The position numbers and the translations under genes were made by a program. This document shows, piece after piece, positions 17,320 through 47,082 of a DNA stretch of 47,082 bases. Source of the stretch: Escherichia phage vB_EcoS_WF5505; sequence record NC_073060.1; one strand, given 5' to 3'. The notes below the pieces were generated by a model. The model was given only the letters and a program-made list of their open reading frames with translations, was not told where the DNA came from and did not search any database. Positions within the stretch are counted from its first letter, which is position 1. Each line of letters opens with the position of its first letter.

Positions 17320-17645
17320 AAGCGGGACAAGCGGGACGTCCCGATCTGTCCCGTTTTGTCCCGCCCCTGTAAAACTGCATATCTACTCACTTTCATTGCA
17401 TAAACTCAAAGCGGGACAAGCGGGACGTCCCGCTTTGTCCCGCCCCTAAATATGCATACCTATTCAGATTTCGTGCATAAAACAAACGGGACAGAAAGCG
17501 GGACAAACAAGGGGCGGGACAAAGCGGGACAGCACCCCGTCCCCGTCAGTGCTGCCGCGGGTTTCAGCCGATCGGGACAGGCGGGACAACTACCAGTCTT
17601 TCAGACTAGACGGGGGTCAATGGCCCCCCTCGTCTTAGACTGAAT
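17320..17645. repeat. Non-coding iteron/palindrome element A
   Basis: Two tandem units with palindrome GCGGGACAAGCGGGACG/TCCCG.T.TGTCCCGC, then direct GCGGGACA repeats and a GC-rich hairpin; homologous to 44770-44945. Confidence 0.8.
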
Positions 17646-22514: not shown

Positions 22515-23122
22515 CCACATTTAAATTGTACGGCGTCTTAGGACGTCGTTTTGGTAAAGTGCATAAGCTGGACTGTTTCACACCTGGCGAGGGTATCACC
22601 GGCCTATGCGTGAAGTTACCAGGCTTACAGGACTTTCTAATGTCGGCCCACCTGAACAGCATGATGTTCAAGGTGCGCAAGGGCAAGCACACAATGACCA
22701 GCTACGACGAGTTGGGCGAGTTCCACGGCGACCGCGTAGTTACCATCGCGCCAGTCATGACTGGTGCTAAAAGCGGACTTGGACAATTGCTGGCGGGCGT
22801 AGCTATCGTGGTGGCGTCGTTCTATACCGGTGGGCTTGCCGCTGCCGCTTTCGGTGCTTCCGCTGCTACCGCTGCCGCTATTGGAACGGCGACGTTTTCG
22901 TTCGGTATGTCGCTTGCGCTGGGCGGCGCTATGCAATTGCTGTCACCGCAGCCGAAAGGATTGCAGACACGGCAGGACGTGGATAACAAGGCGTCGTATG
23001 CGTTTGGCGGGCCTGTAAACACGACCGCGCAAGGTACGGCACTTGGTGTATTATGGGGCGAGCGTGAGATCGGCGGCGCTATTATTTCAGCCGGAATTGT
23101 AACCGAGGATTTGAACGAATGA
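22505..23122 (+). CDS. Tail assembly protein I-like
   Basis: 205 aa with Gly/Ala-rich hydrophobic C-terminal half; immediately upstream of and coupled to J-like gene. Confidence 0.65.
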   Translation: MAMTTFKLYGVLGRRFGKVHKLDCFTPGEGITGLCVKLPGLQDFLMSAHLNSMMFKVRKGKHTMTSYDELGEFHGDRVVTIAPVMTGAKSGLGQLLAGVAIVVASFYTGGLAAAAFGASAATAAAIGTATFSFGMSLALGGAMQLLSPQPKGLQTRQDVDNKASYAFGGPVNTTAQGTALGVLWGEREIGGAIISAGIVTEDLNE

Positions 23123-26100
23123 CGATTGTATACGACGTCACGGGTCATAAAGGCGGCGGTGGCAAACAGCACACCCCACAGGAGACGCCTGATAGCCTGC
23201 ATTCGCTGGCTAAAATCCGCATCTTGCTCGCACTGGGCGAGGGCGAATTTGAAGGCATTCCCGACCCTAACGAATTACGGCAGCGTGTATACCTGGACGG
23301 CACACCGATCCAGAACGCCGACCTGTCGGATAACTTCCCCGGCGCGCGTGTGGAGTTCCGCCCCGGCACGCAGCACCAGGATGTGATTCACGGTTTTTCA
23401 GCGGTGGAAAGCGAGCAAACAGTAGGCGTAAAACTGGAGAACGGCGCGCCGTGGGTGCGCCAGATTTCGGACACCAGTTTGGACGCCGTGCGCATTCGAA
23501 TCGGTATTCCGGCCCTGTACACCAACGAAGATAATGGCGACCTGGTGGGCGGGCGCATCGACTATAAAATCGTTGTGTATACCGACAATGCTGATCCGCG
23601 GGAGTTTACATTCGCTGCCGTTGGTAAAACAATGTCGCTGTATGAGCGCGATCACCGAATCGAATTACCGCCGAACGTTAACACCGGCTGGCGCGTGGAG
23701 GTGCACCGCACAACGGCAGACTCCACATCGGCAAAAGCGGTCAACGATATTCAGGTACAATCCATTACTGAGATTATCGACGCCCGCCTGCGATACCCGC
23801 TAACCGCGCTGTTGTTCGTGGAGTTCGATGCTAAGGCGTTCCAGAACATCCCGCGTGTGTCCATCAAGTGCAAAGGCCGCAAAGTGCTGGTGCCGAACAA
23901 CTACGACCCGATTAATCATACCTATTCTGGTGACTGGGACGGCACATTTAAACGCGCCTGGACGGATAACCCTGCGTGGCACTGGTACGATATTTGTATT
24001 ACTGAGCGCTTCGGCCTCGGTCGTCGTGTCAAGCCACAAATGCTAAACCGTTACGCACTCTACCAGATTTCGCAGCGCTGCGATCAGATGGTCAGTGACG
24101 GCAACGGCGGTCAGGAAATCCGATTTAAGAATGATATGTACATTCAGTCGCAGACCGACGCCTGGACCGTGCTGAAGGATTTAGCGGCTATCTTTGCGGG
24201 CATGACCTGGTGGGGCAACCAGATGTTGAATATCGTCAGTGACCAGCCTGTCGCAGCGGTATCGCATACTATCACCAACGCCTCGGTCATTGATGGTCGA
24301 TTCGACTACGCATCGGGAAGCCAGAAAACTCGGTATTCCACGTTCTCGGTAGCCTACGGCAACCCGAAGAACCACTATGATGACGCCATCGCAACGGGTC
24401 AACGTGTCGAACTGGTGCGCCGCCATAAGATTAACCGCCTTGATATCACGGCGATCGGCTGTACGCGAGAATCTGAAGCGCAACGCCGCGGGCACTGGGC
24501 GCTAATCTCCAACCAGCTTGACCAGCAAGTCAGCTTTAAGGTTGGCATGGAGGGGTTATTCTTTATTCCGGGGAGCGTAGTCGCGATCGCAGATACTAAC
24601 ATTTCTGGCGGCTTCGAGACACGCGGCGGACGCCTGTTGTCAGATCCAGGCACGCGCACCGTGCTGAACACGGACAGCGAAATCACGTTCCGCCCTGGTG
24701 ATAAATTCCTGGTGCGCACCGATAGCGGTAATGTGGAGACTCGCGAGATTGCCAGCGTCAACGGCAACCAGGTCACGCTAAAAACCGCACTGGACTCCGA
24801 CCCGATTCCCGATCAGCCGTTTTGCGTTGATGGCGATGATATCCAGTTGCAGAAGTTCCGCATCACAGACCTGGAATATGACGACGCTACCAGCACTTTT
24901 TCGGTGCGCGGGATTGAGTACAACGATAGCAAATATGATGCCGTTGATAATGGCGCGCGTCTTGATCCGGGTATCTTCACGCAAGTGCCGGACGGAGTAA
25001 TGAAGGGGCCAGAATCCGTTACCATCACCCCGTCGCAGATTTCATCGCAAGGCCAGCTAATCACCAACGTGGACATTGTATTCCCGCCGGTGAAGGATGC
25101 CGTTGTGTACGAAATACAGTGGCGACGTACCAGCTTGCAGAATCTGGAAGTACAGTGGGGCAACGACTGGGTGAACATCCCCCGCACGGCATCGAACGGC
25201 GCGCACATCCCGAACGTGTTTTCTGGTAACTACCAGGCACGCGTCCGCGCTATCGGTATGGGCGAGATTTCATCCCCGTGGGTGTCATCCGAAATCACGC
25301 CGGTCGAGGGCCGTCTTGGCGGGCTAAACGCGCCAATCATTACCAACGCGATTTCGGGCCTTCATCAAATTTTGTGGAAGTGGAATCACAACAACGCCGC
25401 GACGGATATTTCGTATACCGAGCTTGAAGTGCGCAAGCTGGGTGAGACTGAATGGAAATTCTTGACCAACGTCCCATATCCGGGGTCGGACTATGCGCAA
25501 ACGTCGCTGGAATTCGGGATCTACCAGCAGTTGCGCGCACGCGTAGCGGATAAAATCGGCAACCTGTCGGACTGGTCAGACCCGTTTGACGGTCAGGTGA
25601 GTGACAAAGTTGACGAGTACATGCAGGGGCTTGATGACGAGTTCTTGACTTCCGAGGACGGTAAACACTTCCAGGAAGCAATCGACACCATTCCACAAGG
25701 CATTTACGAGGCCATGCTCACCGACGCGCAGCAGTTGTTTAACGCCCGCTCCGAGTATCAAGGGATTTATGCGGAAATCAAGGTGGCGTACAACGTTGCG
25801 GTGGACGCAAACGAGGCCGTAGCGCAACTGGAAACGCTGATCGGCACGCGCCTTGACGATGCGGAAGCGTCAATCCACACGTTGCAGACTGCGCAAAGCA
25901 CGCACGAACAAGCGTTCGCCCAGTATCAACAAACTGTTGCCGCTAAGTTCGGGGAACAGGAAGCTGCCATCCAGCAGGTACAAACGGCAACGGCAGACGT
26001 AGCGGGCGCGCTGGCTGAGTATAAGACCCAGGTAGCGGCACAGTTCGGTCAGCAGTCCGCAGCGATCGAGCAGAAGATGACGTCTTCGTTTAACCATGCT

Positions 26101-26565
26101 GGCGGTAGCGCCACCTACAGCCTTAAAGCTGGCGTGACGTATAACGGGACTTACTATGATGCCGGTATGCAGCTTTCCGTTGTGGCGGAAGGTGGCGCGG
26201 TTAAATCTCGCATCGCGTTCAAGGCGGACCAGTTCTACATCATGCACCCGTCGAATGGGTCGCTTTCGTCCGCGTTTATCGTCGACGGCGGTCAGGTGTA
26301 CATTGACACGGCGCGCATCAAGAATGCGTCCATCAACTTCGCACAGATCACGGACACGCTGCAATCCAATAACTGGAATCCGGGTAACAGCGGCTGGCGA
26401 ATCGCGAAGGATGGCGGGGCGGAGTTCAACAACGTAACGGTACGCGGCAACTTGTTCGCGACTACGGGTAATTTCGGATTCTCCGGCGGGTCCGTTACGA
26501 TCGACGCAACGGGCGTCAACGTGCCATTACCTGGAGGGGGAAGGGTTAAAGTCGGGACGTGGTAA
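23119..26565 (+). CDS. Central tail fibre / host specificity protein J-like
   Basis: 1148 aa; N-terminus KQHTPQETPDSLHSLAKIRILLALGEGEFEG and YSGDWDGTFKRAW resemble lambda gpJ (recalled). Confidence 0.9.
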   Translation: MTIVYDVTGHKGGGGKQHTPQETPDSLHSLAKIRILLALGEGEFEGIPDPNELRQRVYLDGTPIQNADLSDNFPGARVEFRPGTQHQDVIHGFSAVESEQTVGVKLENGAPWVRQISDTSLDAVRIRIGIPALYTNEDNGDLVGGRIDYKIVVYTDNADPREFTFAAVGKTMSLYERDHRIELPPNVNTGWRVEVHRTTADSTSAKAVNDIQVQSITEIIDARLRYPLTALLFVEFDAKAFQNIPRVSIKCKGRKVLVPNNYDPINHTYSGDWDGTFKRAWTDNPAWHWYDICITERFGLGRRVKPQMLNRYALYQISQRCDQMVSDGNGGQEIRFKNDMYIQSQTDAWTVLKDLAAIFAGMTWWGNQMLNIVSDQPVAAVSHTITNASVIDGRFDYASGSQKTRYSTFSVAYGNPKNHYDDAIATGQRVELVRRHKINRLDITAIGCTRESEAQRRGHWALISNQLDQQVSFKVGMEGLFFIPGSVVAIADTNISGGFETRGGRLLSDPGTRTVLNTDSEITFRPGDKFLVRTDSGNVETREIASVNGNQVTLKTALDSDPIPDQPFCVDGDDIQLQKFRITDLEYDDATSTFSVRGIEYNDSKYDAVDNGARLDPGIFTQVPDGVMKGPESVTITPSQISSQGQLITNVDIVFPPVKDAVVYEIQWRRTSLQNLEVQWGNDWVNIPRTASNGAHIPNVFSGNYQARVRAIGMGEISSPWVSSEITPVEGRLGGLNAPIITNAISGLHQILWKWNHNNAATDISYTELEVRKLGETEWKFLTNVPYPGSDYAQTSLEFGIYQQLRARVADKIGNLSDWSDPFDGQVSDKVDEYMQGLDDEFLTSEDGKHFQEAIDTIPQGIYEAMLTDAQQLFNARSEYQGIYAEIKVAYNVAVDANEAVAQLETLIGTRLDDAEASIHTLQTAQSTHEQAFAQYQQTVAAKFGEQEAAIQQVQTATADVAGALAEYKTQVAAQFGQQSAAIEQKMTSSFNHAGGSATYSLKAGVTYNGTYYDAGMQLSVVAEGGAVKSRIAFKADQFYIMHPSNGSLSSAFIVDGGQVYIDTARIKNASINFAQITDTLQSNNWNPGNSGWRIAKDGGAEFNNVTVRGNLFATTGNFGFSGGSVTIDATGVNVPLPGGGRVKVGTW

Positions 26566-26570
26566 ATGAG

Positions 26571-26595
26571 AAGGGGCCATCCGGCCCCTTTTTTA
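26571..26595. terminator. Bidirectional rho-independent terminator (GGGGCC-N-GGCCCC family)
   Basis: AGGGGCCATCCGGCCCCT flanked by A-run and T-run; between J (+) and minus-strand gene. Confidence 0.7.
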
Positions 26596-27558
26596 ATACA
26601 TGTTAGGTATGACGAGTAACGGGGTTGGGACGGCTATGTTGCGGTTAGGCATCTGGAATTGCTGCCGTGAGTAGTTACCGATTACGCGATTACGCGCCGC
26701 ACTAACCACGTTGCCCGCCATGCGTATCCCGTTCATTCGAACGTGGTTGTAGCCGCTGTTGTTCTCAATGAGCGCGCCGGTATATGAAAGCTGTACGAGG
26801 CTATTACCGATATTCTGACCGCCGGTGCCGATATTAATTACCGAATTGAGCACAAACGGCTTGTTAACGGTCGAGAACGTGACCTGCCCCTGGTTGTTCG
26901 TCATGGTGATACCAGTCCCCGGTGATGGAGGCGTATTGTTGAAGATAACCAGATCCAAGTCCACTTCGGCCCCGACGTCATCAATCCCGCCATAAGACGA
27001 ATTGCGGACGATGATACTACTACCATCGAAGCCTACCGATACGTTGCCATTATCCCAGCGCGCGAACGGGATACCGCCCACAGGCAAAGGCATACTACCG
27101 TTCACGTGCACGCGCTGCGCGTAGCGGCAGGTCATTAACCGGGACACGTTGGAAATCGCGGTGAAGTCTGTCGAGTTCGCCACCAGTAAGCCCGCATTGC
27201 GTGACCCCACCGGCAGCACTTCCATAATTATACCAGCCCATTGCGGGAGGCCGCTGTATGCGTTATGCGCGTCCGCGCCTCGAAGGATAATTCCACTATC
27301 CCCGTTGCGCTGTACCGACGTCACGTAGAACGGGTCGGGGAGAACCAGCGTCTGGTCGAACACCTCAAGCACTTCTACCGGGCGCGTGAGTGCAACGACA
27401 AGGTCCGACCCTGGTGTTAGCGGGGTATTAATGGTCAGCGTCTTGTCGGACTGGCAGCGCTGATCAAACGTAGTGCAGTATGACGGAGCGCGCAAACCGG
27501 CAGTTATCTCCATAATCGGTCGTCCGTCGTTGTAGTCGATGAGTATTCCAGCGCCCAT
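26593..27558 (-). CDS. Putative receptor-binding protein (about 321 aa, Gly/Asn/Ser/Val-rich)
   Basis: Minus-strand gene between J and tail fibre, coupled to an upstream lipoprotein gene; ATG with GGGAG RBS. Confidence 0.45.
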   Translation of the reverse strand: MGAGILIDYNDGRPIMEITAGLRAPSYCTTFDQRCQSDKTLTINTPLTPGSDLVVALTRPVEVLEVFDQTLVLPDPFYVTSVQRNGDSGIILRGADAHNAYSGLPQWAGIIMEVLPVGSRNAGLLVANSTDFTAISNVSRLMTCRYAQRVHVNGSMPLPVGGIPFARWDNGNVSVGFDGSSIIVRNSSYGGIDDVGAEVDLDLVIFNNTPPSPGTGITMTNNQGQVTFSTVNKPFVLNSVINIGTGGQNIGNSLVQLSYTGALIENNSGYNHVRMNGIRMAGNVVSAARNRVIGNYSRQQFQMPNRNIAVPTPLLVIPNMY

Positions 27559-27560
27559 TA

Positions 27561-27782
27561 TTACCACTCCCGTGATTTAACAGATACAGTGCCTGAGAAA
27601 TTGCCGTCGCTATCGGCAGATAGGCCCGTGAAGCGCATGTCCACGTCCCCGGCAGGGACTTTTTGCCCGTCAACGTAGCGTAACATGCAGCTACCGTAAG
27701 CAACCGTAATGCAATCGCCGTTGTTGCGTTCTACAGCACAACCGGACAAAAGGACCGCACAAATCATAATTAAAGTTTTCAT
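27561..27782 (-). CDS. Small lipoprotein (73 aa), candidate superinfection-exclusion protein
   Basis: Signal peptide MKTLIMICAVLLSGC with lipobox, strong AGGAGA RBS; adjacent to putative RBP gene. Confidence 0.6.
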   Translation of the reverse strand: MKTLIMICAVLLSGCAVERNNGDCITVAYGSCMLRYVDGQKVPAGDVDMRFTGLSADSDGNFSGTVSVKSREW

Positions 27783-27863
27783 GTTATCATCTCCTATATT
27801 TGGTTGAGTTTTAGTATTGCACCGCTCAATCAAGAATGCAACCAATTTTAAGAGGATTCAGCT
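27783..27863. promoter_or_regulatory. Divergent promoter region between lipoprotein and tail-fibre genes
   Basis: Contains TGCAACCAAT (27837-27846) and inverted partial copy TTGGTTGAG (27799-27807). Confidence 0.4.
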
Positions 27864-29390
27864 ATGGCAGCGGGTACTATCTTATTAACCAATAACAGCC
27901 GGTCGGTAACGGGGACCGGTACGACGTTTTCGGCGTTCAAAGCCGGTGATTTCCTTTCTGTCGTAGTGGGGCAAGTCCCCTACACTATCGCGATTGAATC
28001 TATCGAAAGCAACACCGGGCTTACTTTGGTGCTGCCGTTTGACGGCCCAACGGCATCCGGCCTCGCATGGGATGGCGTTGCGCGCGATACCATGTCGCTG
28101 GCAACGATGGGCGTAACAGTCCAGGCACAGAAAGCACTGCGTATGCTTATTGCGGACGAGAACAACTGGCGTGCAATCTTCGGCGACGCTGAAGAAATCA
28201 CAGTTACGTTACCGAACGGCACAGTGATGCAGGGTATGTCGTGGGGCTACCTGTCGCAGCTAATGAAGCAGATCGACCCGGTGGAAATGCTCAACCTGCA
28301 ACAACAAGCCGCCGCATCTGAGGTCGCAGCGAAAGGATACCGCGACGAGGCCGAAGGCTTCAAGAACGATACTAATACCATCAAGACGCAAACCAACCAG
28401 ATTAAGACTGATACGCAGGCGATCCACGACGCCACCAATACGATCAAGACGCAAACCGACCAGATTAAGACCGATACGCAGGCCATCAAGGACCAGACCA
28501 ACCAGATTAAGACTGACACTGGCGTTATTCGAGATCAGGCCAACACGGCGAAGACTGACGCACAAGCGGCCCGAGATGCAGCGCAGGGATACCGCGACGA
28601 AGCCGAAGGCTTCAAAAACTCAATCGACCCCACTAAGTTCATGCAGAAGTCGCAGAACCTGGCGGACGTTGCCGACAAGTACACCGCGCGCAACATTCTG
28701 GGGGTGGGCGATGACAGTAACGTTAAACACGCAACATTACGCCTGAACGGTGGCGAATCATTAACATTCAATGAAGTGGAGGCTAACGGCTTAATTCTAT
28801 CAAACGCCTCGATGGGAATCGACAATTGGGTAGGCTTCACCATGCATGAATGGTACGCCGACTGGACACGCGCAGGAATTGTGCGTGCGGGTGACACCCA
28901 CGTGTCAGACTACCGCATCCACGTGTGGAAGAATGGGGCTACTGAGGCGCTATTCCGCTTCCTGCCGGACGGGCGTCTGATTCAGGGTAACAGCGGCAAC
29001 CCATCGTCGGCGGAGTTTCAGAAAGCACCGCTATCAGACCGGGACGTGAAGAAAGAAATCCAATACACGGACGGCGCGGAAAGTTACAACCGAGTACGGC
29101 AATGGCTACCAGCAATGTTTAAGTATAAGGAGTCGGACGTACAGCGTTACGGCCTTATCGCGCAGGACCTGGCCATGATTGACCCGGAATATGTGCACTT
29201 GCTGCCAGGACACGGAATCTACGAGGACGTTGTTGTTGGCGTGGACGAGGAAGGGAACGAGATTATCGAGCAAAAGGAGATCGGATACACCGACGATGTG
29301 CTGTCGCTTGACAGTAACGTGCTGTTGATGGATCTATGCGCCGCCTTCGTTCACCTGTTGCAGAAAGTAGAAAAGCTGGAAGGTAAGTAA
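27864..29390 (+). CDS. Tail fibre protein with C-terminal intramolecular chaperone domain
   Basis: N-terminal MAAGTILLTNNSRSVTG; 21-aa tandem repeats; C-terminal LSDRDVKK and GLIAQDL resemble S74 autoproteolytic chaperone domains. Confidence 0.75.
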   Translation: MAAGTILLTNNSRSVTGTGTTFSAFKAGDFLSVVVGQVPYTIAIESIESNTGLTLVLPFDGPTASGLAWDGVARDTMSLATMGVTVQAQKALRMLIADENNWRAIFGDAEEITVTLPNGTVMQGMSWGYLSQLMKQIDPVEMLNLQQQAAASEVAAKGYRDEAEGFKNDTNTIKTQTNQIKTDTQAIHDATNTIKTQTDQIKTDTQAIKDQTNQIKTDTGVIRDQANTAKTDAQAARDAAQGYRDEAEGFKNSIDPTKFMQKSQNLADVADKYTARNILGVGDDSNVKHATLRLNGGESLTFNEVEANGLILSNASMGIDNWVGFTMHEWYADWTRAGIVRAGDTHVSDYRIHVWKNGATEALFRFLPDGRLIQGNSGNPSSAEFQKAPLSDRDVKKEIQYTDGAESYNRVRQWLPAMFKYKESDVQRYGLIAQDLAMIDPEYVHLLPGHGIYEDVVVGVDEEGNEIIEQKEIGYTDDVLSLDSNVLLMDLCAAFVHLLQKVEKLEGK

Positions 29391-29393
29391 TGA

Positions 29394-29418
29394 GAAGGGG
29401 CCATACGGCCCCTTTTTT
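29394..29418. terminator. Bidirectional rho-independent terminator (GGGGCC-N-GGCCCC family)
   Basis: AAGGGGCCATACGGCCCCTT followed by TTTTTT; between tail fibre (+) and minus-strand module. Confidence 0.7.
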
Positions 29419-29992
29419 AGTTTGAGTTTTCCCAGTCCATTTTGCGCCGTACTAACGGGCTTTCGTAATATTCCTTGCCCTCCACTTCCACCAGAGGCCA
29501 GTCGTTGACAATCACGTATGGTTCCGCAATATCCTCAATCACGCCGTGTGCGCTATGTTGCCCGAACGATACGCCCACCAGGATAACACCGGCAACCCGA
29601 CGGGTGAGATACTCGCGAGCGCAACGCGCCTCTACCAGTCCGCGACGGATGCCGCTGGTGGCTTTGACCTCGTAGGTCCAGACGGCATCAATCATGTGCT
29701 CACGGAAGTCGGGGCCGGACTTAACCTTGCGTTTACCGACCATGATAATATCGCCGCGGTCGATAGTATTGGCGCTAAACAGGCCGGTACGCATAAGCAA
29801 GCCTTGCGGGATACAACTACGCCCGCCTGCCTGCCCTTCAAGGTACATGCCAGCAAACATCTCGCCCAGCACACCGACAAGTCGGCTTTGCTTGCACGCG
29901 TCAGACTTTAATCGCCACTGGTCAAACTCGACGCTCGCCAACATTGCCGCTATGTGGAATTGTTTACCGGTTATTTCGTATTCGCCGTACAT
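29417..29992 (-). CDS. Hypothetical protein (191 aa), possible PD-(D/E)XK-like nuclease
   Basis: Track ORF; candidate motif GDIIMV...(about 28 aa)...YEVK; assignment weak. Confidence 0.4.
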   Translation of the reverse strand: MYGEYEITGKQFHIAAMLASVEFDQWRLKSDACKQSRLVGVLGEMFAGMYLEGQAGGRSCIPQGLLMRTGLFSANTIDRGDIIMVGKRKVKSGPDFREHMIDAVWTYEVKATSGIRRGLVEARCAREYLTRRVAGVILVGVSFGQHSAHGVIEDIAEPYVIVNDWPLVEVEGKEYYESPLVRRKMDWENSN

Positions 29993-41283: not shown

Positions 41284-41805
41284 TTAATCTTCTAATTCGA
41301 AATACGTTTCTACGATTTCTTTTAAATCTTTGTGGAAGTCTTCGACGTCGTCATCTTCCAGCTTGGCAACGGATTTAATTTCGAACGCTTCCAGCAGATC
41401 ATCAAATTCGTCGTTTGCGTCGTCGTCATCACCGCCCGCAATAATAGCGGCATACTGCTTGATTTCGTCGCGCATTTCTTTCAGCGGATCGGCATCTTTC
41501 TTGCCTTTACCTTTCGCCGGTGCTTTCTTAGACTTCGCTGGGGCTTCTTCTTCGTCGTCCGCGTCGTCGTCTTCTTCTACGGCTTCTTTCTTAGCCTTGC
41601 CCTTAGCCGGGGCTTTTTTGGTCTTAGCCGGAGCTTCGTCTTCAGCGTCGTCATCTTCGACCACTTCTTCTTTCGCCTTGCCATTAGCCGGGGCTTTCTT
41701 CGCTTCCTGTTTACCAACGGCAGCGCCAGCAGTTTCATAATGCTTAGCGATTACTTCCAGTGCTACTACGCCGCGTGTGATCAGGTTTACGATTTGCTCA
41801 AACAT
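41284..41805 (-). CDS. Hypothetical acidic protein with tandem charged repeats (173 aa)
   Basis: Two copies of (D/E)n-EAPAK-KKAPAKGK-KK, then acidic C-terminus; first gene of the minus-strand module. Confidence 0.55.
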   Translation of the reverse strand: MFEQIVNLITRGVVALEVIAKHYETAGAAVGKQEAKKAPANGKAKEEVVEDDDAEDEAPAKTKKAPAKGKAKKEAVEEDDDADDEEEAPAKSKKAPAKGKGKKDADPLKEMRDEIKQYAAIIAGGDDDDANDEFDDLLEAFEIKSVAKLEDDDVEDFHKDLKEIVETYFELED

Positions 41806-44945: not shown

Positions 44946-45159
44946 AAATCCTGGATTGCATAATGCACGGCAGCATGATGAGAATTGCGGTCGTTGATGA
45001 ACTAGGCAACCAATGCGAGTTGGATAATGGAGAGTGAAAAATGCAGTTTGCAGTTACAGCAGATAGCGATCAACTTTTTCATACGCATGATTAATATTGG
45101 TTGCATTCAGCCTGGCACCCTGCTAGATTGGTTGCACACCAACGAGAGGACCAAACAAA

Positions 45160-45330
45160 ATGAAATTTCCAGTAACCATCAAAGACGGTAAATCAACTAT
45201 CACCTTCACCAGCAACGACCAGGGCACCTATGAAAGCGGGGCGACTTGCATGTCTACCCTGGACGATGTGATGATTCGTGTTAATTCCGGTAAAGCCTCG
45301 ATTGTTGACGACAACACTAAGAAGGACTGA
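45160..45330 (+). CDS. Duplicate of 104-274 (small early protein)
   Basis: Inside right repeat, identical sequence. Confidence 0.5.
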   Translation: MKFPVTIKDGKSTITFTSNDQGTYESGATCMSTLDDVMIRVNSGKASIVDDNTKKD

Positions 45331-45333
45331 ACA

Positions 45334-45639
45334 ATGAGAGCATTAATCTGGAAATACTCACGGGCCATAGCGAAGCTGGACGAAGCGAAAAACACAAACG
45401 GCAACGTAGACTATGCGCGCCAGTTTGCGGCACGGGCACACCAACACATCATGAGTGCGCTCGACGATATGGACGCCAGCATGGATGACCTGGGTCCGCT
45501 GCGTAAGGCTATCCATGAATACGCGCTGGCATTCTCCCGTGAGCGCCTGGCCTATCGCTTCGGTATTGGCGATAAGGCAGTGACAAACGTTGCCCGGATT
45601 AAAGCCCAGCGTGAGCTATTCGCCCAGCTTGCGAAATAA
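45334..45639 (+). CDS. Duplicate of 278-583
   Basis: Identical translation in ORF track. Confidence 0.6.
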   Translation: MRALIWKYSRAIAKLDEAKNTNGNVDYARQFAARAHQHIMSALDDMDASMDDLGPLRKAIHEYALAFSRERLAYRFGIGDKAVTNVARIKAQRELFAQLAK

Positions 45640-45648
45640 GAGGCCAAA

Positions 45649-45918
45649 ATGACCCGTAGACGCGCAAAACAGCTTTCGTGGCATATCCCCCTGCATTGCA
45701 TACGAATATGGGCTAAGAATGCGAATGAGGGCGATTCAGTGTTCTGGTGCTATCGCGACGACGTTAAGCCGTTGACGCAGACTCGCTACTTGCACCAGTT
45801 CGCAGCACAACACGATTTCAGGGTGCGGACTTCCTTGCAACCAATGGGGATCCGTATTACATTACGCCGGAAGCCCGCCGTTGAGCGGGTAGGCAAACAC
45901 TGGAGACTGAGCAAATGA
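45649..45918 (+). CDS. Duplicate of 593-862
   Basis: Identical translation in ORF track. Confidence 0.55.
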   Translation: MTRRRAKQLSWHIPLHCIRIWAKNANEGDSVFWCYRDDVKPLTQTRYLHQFAAQHDFRVRTSLQPMGIRITLRRKPAVERVGKHWRLSK

Positions 45919-46259
45919 TTCGAGTAACCGCACGCCACGAACAATCGGGGGCCACTTACGATGTAATCGACGTTCGCGGCGCGTTCGTCATCTTCGGACG
46001 GGGTGACGACCGGCTGGCGCTGCCGATCGGTATGCTGAGCACATACGACTATTTCAAGCATAACGTCCGGTGTGGCGATGTGCTGCGCGATAAGCGCACC
46101 GGTGAGCTATGGACGGTGGCGAGTATTTGGGTGAAAGATAAACGGCAGCACACGTTATTGCTCGCCCGCCCGGATTGCAAACAGCAAACTATTAACACTA
46201 TTGGCCTGGTGGACTACACCCGCGTAGGCCGTAACGCTACCTGGAGACTGAGAAAATGA
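45915..46259 (+). CDS. Duplicate of 859-1203 (paralogue A)
   Basis: Identical translation in ORF track. Confidence 0.6.
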   Translation: MIRVTARHEQSGATYDVIDVRGAFVIFGRGDDRLALPIGMLSTYDYFKHNVRCGDVLRDKRTGELWTVASIWVKDKRQHTLLLARPDCKQQTINTIGLVDYTRVGRNATWRLRK

Positions 46260-46888
46260 AATTACTATTCCGCCGTAACTCAGATGGCTATATCCTGAAG
46301 CCGATCCAGACCCTATCGAACTGGGTACGCCTCCACCACGTTGCGAGTGATAAAGTCTGGTGGGCGACTAAGGCAAAGCTGCCGGAGTACTACGAAATCC
46401 TCACACACGATATCGAGCGCGGCGATGTGCTGCGGGATATTCGCGACGGGCAATTGTGGGTCGTGGAATACGTGGGTCGGCACGGCCTGCGTATGACGTC
46501 CCGCAAGGATGGCGTAGCGGGCAACATGGTCAAGGGCATGACTTACTTCGGGCTACTCCACTACGAACGAGTGGGCCGCAAGTACAGCCTGCGTGCGCGC
46601 CAGCCTCATGAGCGAGCGAACGCCATAGCGGACGTCGTTAACCGCGTAGCGCGGGAGGTGGAGCAGAAGACACGCGTTGAGTTCTGCAAGTCCCAGCCAG
46701 CCTATGCAACCTACGACGCGAGCAAAGCGCAGGAATTGATCCGCAGTGCCACGCATGAAATCATCAATCACGTTGATGCCATGACGAACGCCAAGCGCCA
46801 GGCCAGCGAATACGGCGTAGGATTCATCCGTGTCGAACAAGACGGCAACATGACCGCCATCGACCCGCGCACGGTAATACTGAAATGA
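46256..46888 (+). CDS. Duplicate of 1200-1832 (paralogue B)
   Basis: Identical translation in ORF track. Confidence 0.6.
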   Translation: MKLLFRRNSDGYILKPIQTLSNWVRLHHVASDKVWWATKAKLPEYYEILTHDIERGDVLRDIRDGQLWVVEYVGRHGLRMTSRKDGVAGNMVKGMTYFGLLHYERVGRKYSLRARQPHERANAIADVVNRVAREVEQKTRVEFCKSQPAYATYDASKAQELIRSATHEIINHVDAMTNAKRQASEYGVGFIRVEQDGNMTAIDPRTVILK

Positions 46889-47009
46889 GCGCAACTATCC
46901 GTGATATGCTTATGCATAACCGCTTTGAGATAGGCGGGAGAGTGTTCTGCAATTACTTCGTGGCGCGTGCTTGGGCGCGCCATATCGGAAAACCAGTAGG
47001 GGCAATACG

Positions 47010-47082
47010 ATGCTACACGATTTGATATTTTGGTTTGGTTTGGGGTGTGCGTCACTCTTTGCTATAGTGCTGGCGCTGTTGA
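47010..47082 (+). CDS. 5' fragment of duplicate of 1954-2241, truncated by window end
   Basis: Same sequence as 1954-2026; the window (and the repeat) ends inside the gene. Confidence 0.4.
   Translation, partial: MLHDLIFWFGLGCASLFAIVLALL

Follow-up and report, generated by a model that had tools for sequence, protein, structure and literature searches.

A probable lateral tail fibre of a Dhillonvirus with a heptad-repeat shaft that varies in length and a C-terminal S74 intramolecular chaperone domain

The window analysed here is the whole 47,082-nt stretch of sequence record NC_073060.1 (Escherichia phage vB_EcoS_WF5505). Outside the fibre gene it is 95-96% identical to Dhillonvirus genomes, and judged by its sequence it is itself a Dhillonvirus genome. 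The stretch 45057-47082 repeats bases 1-2026 without a difference, and the unit genome thus measures 45,056 bp. The gene under study is an open reading frame on the plus strand (27864-29390) with an ATG start, which encodes a precursor of 508 aa and 55.8 kDa; all features of the gene given below lie on this strand. By direct reading of the sequence, a ribosome-binding site, AAGAGGA (27850-27856), lies 7 nt 5' of the ATG. The gene order in the window is a J homologue (23119-26565, 1148 aa), two reverse-strand genes encoding a 324-aa PHROG 1265 protein and a Cor-like lipoprotein, the fibre gene, and a convergent gene. The same order is found in relatives, and the fibre locus is syntenic with that of MZ234016, MZ234029 and NC_012223. 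After the stop codon a hairpin terminator, AAGGGGCC-ATAC-GGCCCCTT with a T run (29395-29418), was read by eye; it is common to the fibre gene and the convergent downstream gene, and the same hairpin cassette is also present 3' of the J gene at 26563-26595. A scan for consensus promoters and terminators gave nothing above shuffle expectation and did not flag the hairpin after the fibre stop codon. Two reverse-strand ORFs of 90-101 aa within the repeat region (28247-28519 and 28260-28565) were dismissed as stop-free artefacts of repetitive, low-complexity coding sequence; they are annotated in no relative that we examined.

The whole 508-aa protein is matched by PHROG 1980 'tail fiber protein' (E 1e-118), and the gene has 99.7% nucleotide identity to CDS 26136-27662 of Escherichia phage vB_EcoS-101114BS4, 98.6% to vB_EcoS-CHD5UKE2 and 95.6% to ST-T-K. 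The homologues in Dhillonvirus genomes are labelled tail fiber or lateral tail fiber, while several database records name the protein 'tail tip protein' or 'putative tail tip protein'. The nearest GenBank records for the gene carry either 'hypothetical protein' or 'tail tip protein', and the UniRef cluster of the nearest homologue is already titled Peptidase S74 domain protein. The PHROG match, the annotations of the homologues and the position in the tail module after J all bear out the reading of this gene as a tail fibre in an earlier note made from the sequence. The conserved anchor and shaft and the tail-module position downstream of J are moreover those of the lateral fibres of Dhillonvirus.

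The N-terminal domain (aa 1-143, 27864-28292) is conserved across Dhillonvirus fibres and presumably attaches the fibre to the tail. Most Dhillonvirus matches span approximately aa 1-272 (their ends falling at about 272-296) at 75-84% identity, after which the C-termini diverge; over aa 1-272 the identity to members of the genus is 75-99% overall. The first 72 residues resemble PDB 23gd_B, deposited as 'distal tail protein gp20' (E 9e-6).

The anchor is followed by a shaft of heptad repeats (aa 144-255, 28293-28628). When the sequence is laid out in sevens from Asn144, 16 unbroken heptads run to about aa 255, with a hydrophobic residue at position 2 in 15 of the 16 (eight of them Ile) and Thr or Ala at position 6, again in 15. 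Such an uninterrupted periodicity is what a coiled-coil shaft calls for, and we presume that aa 144-255 form a trimeric coiled coil. The segment aa 153-250 also matches residues 172-269 of the T7 gp17 shaft (PDB 7boz, E 0.01) through a common R-[DN]-E-A-E-G-F-K-N heptad segment. The likeness is weak and of low complexity, and the anchor and tip domains of the two proteins differ, but it backs the role of aa 144-255 as a fibre shaft. To our knowledge T7 gp17 has no S74 domain.

Within the shaft, Tandem Repeats Finder detected a repeat of 63-bp period at 28360-28501, which scores 200 and has 2.3 copies with 81% matches and no indels. A 21-bp period is nested in it, and a second repeat search of the window gave the same picture. 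The unit corresponds to 21 aa, or three heptads. In codon register, unit 1 lies at 28371-28433 (TNTIKTQTNQIKTDTQAIHDA) and unit 2 at 28434-28496 (TNTIKTQTDQIKTDTQAIKDQ), identical at 53/63 nt and 18/21 aa, and 28497-28520 encodes part of a third unit, TNQIKTDT. The span of 28371-28523 proposed previously for about 2.3 tandem copies was thus essentially right. The duplicated GYRDEAEGFKN segments said to flank the repeat are likewise present, at aa 158-168 (28335-28367) and aa 242-252 (28587-28619), exactly 84 aa apart. At the DNA level these segments are part of a 42-nt direct repeat with a left copy at 28326-28367 (AAKGYRDEAEGFKN) and a right copy at 28578-28619 (AAQGYRDEAEGFKN), identical at 38/42 nt (90%) and spaced by exactly 252 bp. 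The repeat and the motifs are not due to chance, since the former scores highly and dozens of homologues show the same features.

Downstream of the shaft lies a collar motif, SQNLADVADKYTARNILGVG (aa 263-282, 28650-28709, boundaries approximate), a tail-fibre repeat element that aligns with the repeated NLADVPNK..ARSNLG units of the short tail fibre gp92 (PDB 9zd7). It also marks a junction between modules. SSL-2009a and SM_S22 carry a 30-aa insertion at the collar that contains a second collar copy. The collar leads into a beta-rich distal region (aa 283-390, 28710-29033), which from its similarity to T5-like tips and a low-confidence all-beta model is a candidate, and presumably the, receptor-binding domain. 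From about aa 285 to 453 the protein is 42-48% identical to fibres of T5-like phages (T5_ev212, OSYSP, Seabear), and from about aa 253 to its end it is 63-70% identical to the C-termini of lambdoid phage mEp021 gp82 and Hanrivervirus herni gp3, whose N-termini are unrelated. The sequence comparison thus indicates that tip and chaperone move as one cassette, with the junction close to the collar motif (NLADV...ARNxLG) and the second of the GYRDEAEGFKN segments. The AF2 monomer model of aa 253-508 was poor (pLDDT 63, pTM 0.39) and found no match in the PDB with E below 0.2; in BFVD it matched S74 fibres at TM 0.2-0.3, to which we give little weight.

The last 118 of the 508 residues of this protein, which matches tail-fibre families and which we infer to be trimeric, form an intramolecular chaperone or Peptidase S74 domain (aa 391-508, 29034-29387, 13.5 kDa). 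Pfam PF13884, Peptidase_S74, matches aa 391-444 (E 4e-7) over profile positions 1-57 of 58, its score of 30.7 bits exceeding the curated cut-off of 22, and the Pfam search of the protein gave no other family above cut-off. The two motifs on which the domain was originally proposed are both found, LSDRDVKK at aa 390-397 (29031-29054) and GLIAQDL at aa 430-436 (29151-29171). The Ser codon had been put near 29026, however, and its true place is about 8 nt further on, at 29034-29036. A word-index homologue search with the C-terminal 229 aa returned 5 proteins, and an exhaustive HMMER search of representatives that started from aa 280-508 yielded 92. When 90 of these are aligned with the query (n=91), Ser391 is conserved in 84 sequences and replaced by Cys in 6; Lys396 is present in 90, Asp392 in 87 and Gly430 in all 91, and Ile432, Ala433 and Gln434 are each conserved in 87-89.

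Searched as a single sequence against the PDB, the full-length protein matched no chaperone structure, and with the C-terminal 229 aa the DT57C protein LtfA (8hqz_d, E 6.8e-6) was the sole match. A family profile built from 20 diverse relatives matched the L-shaped tail fibre of DT57C (8hqz_d, E 2.3e-30) and, beyond it, the MyRF ICA domain (7dc3, E 5.9e-10), two further tail fibres (8jov, 6f45) and the neck appendage chaperone of GA-1 (3gud, E 0.008). Apart from a weak match to MYC2 (E 0.5), the profile matches were limited to proteins known to carry an intramolecular chaperone. The SD..K motif is aligned in these matches, and the chain of 3gud starts at the aligned Ser. T5 pb1 gave no sequence-level match with HMMER, also when the family profile was used, and is matched by fold alone at 16% identity. 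The AF2 model of aa 385-508 has a pLDDT of 91.4; in the numbering of the model, residues 67-91 form a beta-hairpin and 100-122 the terminal helix. Its top 13 Foldseek matches in the PDB were all 7dc3, 4uw8, 3gw6 or 3gud (TM 0.46-0.65), led by 7dc3 (TM 0.65) and with T5 pb1 (4uw8) at TM 0.63 and rmsd 4.1 Å; after these 13 chaperone matches the E-value rises from 0.01 to 0.6. A profile score above cut-off, a Ser with a Lys five residues on, the characteristic fold (an alpha/beta body with a long hairpin 'tentacle' and a coiled-coil helix at the C-terminus) and the extreme C-terminal position, which together mark an S74 domain, are thus all present. The earlier note had proposed such a domain and had named the lack of an S74 profile match as evidence that would count against it. 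The match was found with both Pfam and the family profile, and the structural matches and the conserved Ser/Lys dyad agree with it.

By homology the fibre is predicted to cleave itself. T5 pb1 cuts the bond Thr1263-Ser1264, where Ser1264 is activated by Lys1269, and an Arg from the neighbouring chain makes correct folding of the trimer a prerequisite for cleavage; Arg1250 and Asp1239, upstream of the cut, act as folding-sensor residues (PMC4690869). Ser391 and Lys396 have the spacing of Ser1264 and Lys1269. From this analogy and the start of the Pfam match at aa 391, we predict Leu390-Ser391 (29031-29036) as the scissile bond and Lys396 (29049-29051), five residues after the Ser and conserved in 90/91, as the general base. 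Equivalents of T5 Arg1250 and Asp1239 were sought in the alignment of 91 sequences and no mapping was obtained. Among the closest relatives Arg365, Asp369 and Arg371 are invariant, and the column of the family alignment with Arg in 52/91 has Ala362 here.

We further compared the length of the shaft in 57 homologues that carry both boundary motifs, along with CHD5UKE2 from a separate alignment. The length is that of the query in 38 of the 57; 11 alleles are shorter by 7 aa, three by 14, two by 21, and one each by 42 and by 84, and one is longer by 7 aa. CHD5UKE2, additional to the 57, is longer by 21 aa. All natural shaft indels are thus multiples of 7 aa, and every allele inspected keeps its heptads in register. 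The spacing between the two GYRDEAEGFKN segments is 84 aa in 35 of 39 and 63, 70 or 77 aa in the rest. The insertion in CHD5UKE2 is exactly 63 bp, giving 3.3 copies against 2.3 here, so the comparison of copy number across isolates that had been suggested does reveal a difference. Its extra unit matches the adjacent one at 62/63 nt, which points to a tandem duplication of recent date. Phage mckay lacks exactly 252 bp (84 aa) between the 42-nt direct repeats, with one hybrid copy left. In six aligned close relatives the indels are confined to the repeat, the collar and one single-residue gap in the chaperone domain. The proposal that the repeat is a hotspot of length variation therefore holds in so far as natural alleles, CHD5UKE2 among them, do vary; the word hotspot seems overstated, as 38/57 have the same length and the changes are of whole heptads. 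On these alignments the modal length recurs with many different tip modules, which suggests that shaft length is also constrained. A literature search on heptad-quantised length variation in tail-fibre shafts found nothing relevant, and relative to the literature searched this explicit length series and the tip of the present allele appear to be new.

The overall architecture is already known for the genus. Dhillonvirus lateral fibres have been described as a coiled coil with a T5-like tip and an intramolecular chaperone, the homologous Bas85 gp29 as having an 'elongated N-terminal coiled coil', and O-antigen has been shown phenotypically to be a facultative primary receptor for Bas83-85 (PMC11990801). 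Over its first 813 nt the Bas85 gene has 82% identity to the present gene, and the tips of Bas83-85 differ from the present one. The fibres of RuthEpting (Bas85 gp29), JLBYU60, SSL-2009a (gp28) and vB_EcoS-101114BS4 (gp040) have the same gene position and domain plan, with anchor and shaft 75-99% identical to ours. In contrast, the tip of the present allele is unlike that of most members of the genus, which diverge after about aa 272-296, and it is without the second collar repeat, of 30 aa, that SSL-2009a carries. In the literature we found no experimental cleavage of any Dhillonvirus lateral fibre.

T5 pb1 and DT57C LtfA (4UW8, 8HQZ) share the C-terminal chaperone and the Ser with a Lys five residues on, and can be likened to Dhillonvirus fibres as O-antigen-binding lateral fibres of siphophages, a binding that for the present allele we infer. 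They are far longer (1076-1396 aa against 508 aa), and the receptor-binding domain of T5 pb1 is a bullet-shaped structure of about 290 aa, whereas the tip here has about 108 aa. Endosialidase K1F (endoNF, 3GW6) and the GA-1/phi29 neck appendage (3GUD), the founding members of S74, share their fold (TM about 0.5) with the present domain, which when released would likewise begin with SD..K, but the K1F and GA-1 chaperones fold enzymatic triple beta-helix tailspikes, while here the chaperone follows a small non-enzymatic tip. The best structural match, the MyRF ICA (7DC3, E 6e-10), is the same trimerisation-coupled self-cleavage module in a eukaryotic membrane-bound transcription factor of unrelated biological role.

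Taken as a whole, the gene is best explained as that of a lateral (side) tail fibre, a homotrimer with an S74 intramolecular chaperone and a heptad shaft, in a Dhillonvirus, a siphophage of E. coli; to this reading we assign a probability of about 0.88. The labels 'putative tail tip protein' in many GenBank records, together with the resemblance of aa 1-72 to the deposited distal tail protein 23gd_B, could be taken to mean that the protein belongs to the central tail tip. That resemblance is equally compatible with an anchoring domain, the central fibre is supplied by the separate 1148-aa J homologue upstream, and the BASEL work assigns the homologous gene to the lateral tail fibre as distinct from the central fibre (PMC11990801); we regard a central-tip protein as extremely unlikely. 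Nor do we find it at all probable that the S74-like domain aids trimerisation and is then retained uncleaved, so that the mature fibre would be the full 508 aa with the C-terminal domain in the functional tip. Such a fate would fit with the auxiliary Arg and Asp residues finding no placement in the alignment. It sits badly with the conservation of the Ser/Lys dyad and its surrounding motif (84/91 and 90/91) and with a domain of complete fold whose score exceeds the Pfam cut-off. In T5, moreover, uncleaved pb1 cannot compete with the phage for the receptor and does not block infection (PMC4690869).

A different doubt concerns the DNA repeat, which might be a mere by-product of selection for the heptad pattern in the protein and not specially mutable, the length differences then stemming from module exchange and not from slippage. 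Units 1 and 2 differ at 10/63 nt and so are not recent copies, and 38/57 alleles share their shaft length across many different C-terminal modules, as this account would have it. The extra unit of CHD5UKE2, however, at 62/63 identity in a gene 98.6% identical overall, has the signature of a recent tandem duplication; the endpoints of the mckay deletion fall exactly within the two 42-nt direct repeats; and apart from one single-residue gap in the chaperone domain, the repeat and the collar account for every indel among the six close relatives aligned. With this evidence we hold the by-product account to be unlikely, and slippage or unequal recombination among the 63-bp units, or between the flanking 42-nt repeats, would be the route by which whole heptads are added or removed, changing shaft length with the register of the coiled coil unbroken.

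For the fibre itself we propose that the N-terminal 143 or so residues would anchor it in the region of the tail tip, and that the short collar leads into the small beta-rich tip (aa ~283-390), which probably binds a surface glycan such as O-antigen. The chaperone would nucleate trimerisation and the folding of the tip, starting from the C-terminal end. Once a correct trimer has formed, Ser391, activated by Lys396, would cut Leu390-Ser391, releasing a 13.5-kDa fragment and leaving a mature fibre of 42.3 kDa that ends at Leu390 with its tip exposed.

One may also speculate that shaft length is an adaptive, heptad-quantised trait, with the 63-bp and 42-nt repeats as a built-in length switch that matches the reach of the fibre to the thickness of O-antigen or capsule. 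We consider this rather doubtful. If it were true, the alleles seen would cover 4 to 19 heptads in steps of about 1 nm per heptad, the reach of the fibre would be tuned to the host surface layer relative to the central fibre, and the modal length of 16 heptads would be held by selection on common hosts.

For those who would engineer this fibre, C-terminal tags would be lost, because the mature protein is predicted to stop at Leu390; the collar region (about aa 253-296) offers a natural junction for swapping tips, and the shaft could be adjusted by whole heptads, as in the natural alleles. Beyond correct annotation, for which lateral tail fibre with a C-terminal S74 intramolecular chaperone is a safe label, the locus has little import, and the heptad-quantised series of shaft lengths stands as a neat, if unsurprising, example of repeat-mediated fibre evolution.

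The tail fibre of the phage mckay (L006), which is homologous to the 508 aa fibre encoded at 27864-29390, is 424 aa long and lacks exactly the 84 aa that separate the two GYRDEAEGFKN copies in the shaft (L006 927-1040 compared with window 28326-28619). After this loss the mckay shaft consists of 4 heptads, and mckay with its 4-heptad shaft is a viable phage isolate.

At the N-terminus of the fibre encoded in the window, aa 1-72 (window 27864-28079) were found to be similar to aa 1-72 of PDB 23gd_B (E 9e-6), which was deposited under the name 'distal tail protein gp20'. A second match for these residues is PHROG 9922, 'minor tail protein'. The segment is possibly a tail-attachment module that several tail proteins have in common.

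The fibre gene is separated from the J gene, the homologue encoding the central fibre, by two genes on the minus strand (26593-27845), one for a 324-aa protein of PHROG 1265 ('membrane protein') and the other for a Cor-like lipoprotein. In the lambdoid phage mEp021 the homologous fibre is likewise preceded by a 311-aa 'virion structural protein' and a lipoprotein, whereas Dhillonviruses of the SSL-2009a type carry other genes between J and the fibre. A hairpin terminator cassette of about 30 nt follows both the J gene (26563-26595) and the fibre gene (29388-29419), and the sequence common to the two copies is TAATGAGAAGGGGCCAT(C/A)CGGCCCCTTTTTTA. As both copies occupy convergent gene junctions, we suggest that the cassette is a reused bidirectional terminator.

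Further repeats were seen elsewhere in the window. A 173-aa protein encoded on the minus strand (41284-41805) contains three imperfect repeats, each Lys/Ala-rich and then Asp/Glu-rich (KKAPAKGKAKKE...EDDD), which are encoded by 65-nt direct repeats spaced by 90 and 81 nt. A 177-nt direct repeat with 82% identity lies in two distant parts of the genome (17453-17629 and 44751-44927); among the ORFs that lie wholly inside the window, none of at least 80 aa overlaps the copy at 17453-17629. Comparison within the window also showed that positions 1-2026 and 45057-47082 are identical (2026/2026 bases). The terminal 2026 bases are thus an exact duplicate of the first 2026, giving a unit genome of 45,056 bp round which the window wraps. 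Either the assembly is circularly permuted or derived from a concatemer, or the genome is terminally redundant.

In the C-terminal chaperone, the predicted nucleophilic Ser (Ser391 of the fibre) is replaced by Cys in 6 of the 90 aligned relatives, giving the motif C-D-x-x-L-K; relatives from outside the window noted for this Cys-for-Ser motif are P0170, P0185 and P0191. The substitution suggests that in the Cys-bearing relatives the self-cleaving chaperone is of a variant type whose nucleophile is a thiol.
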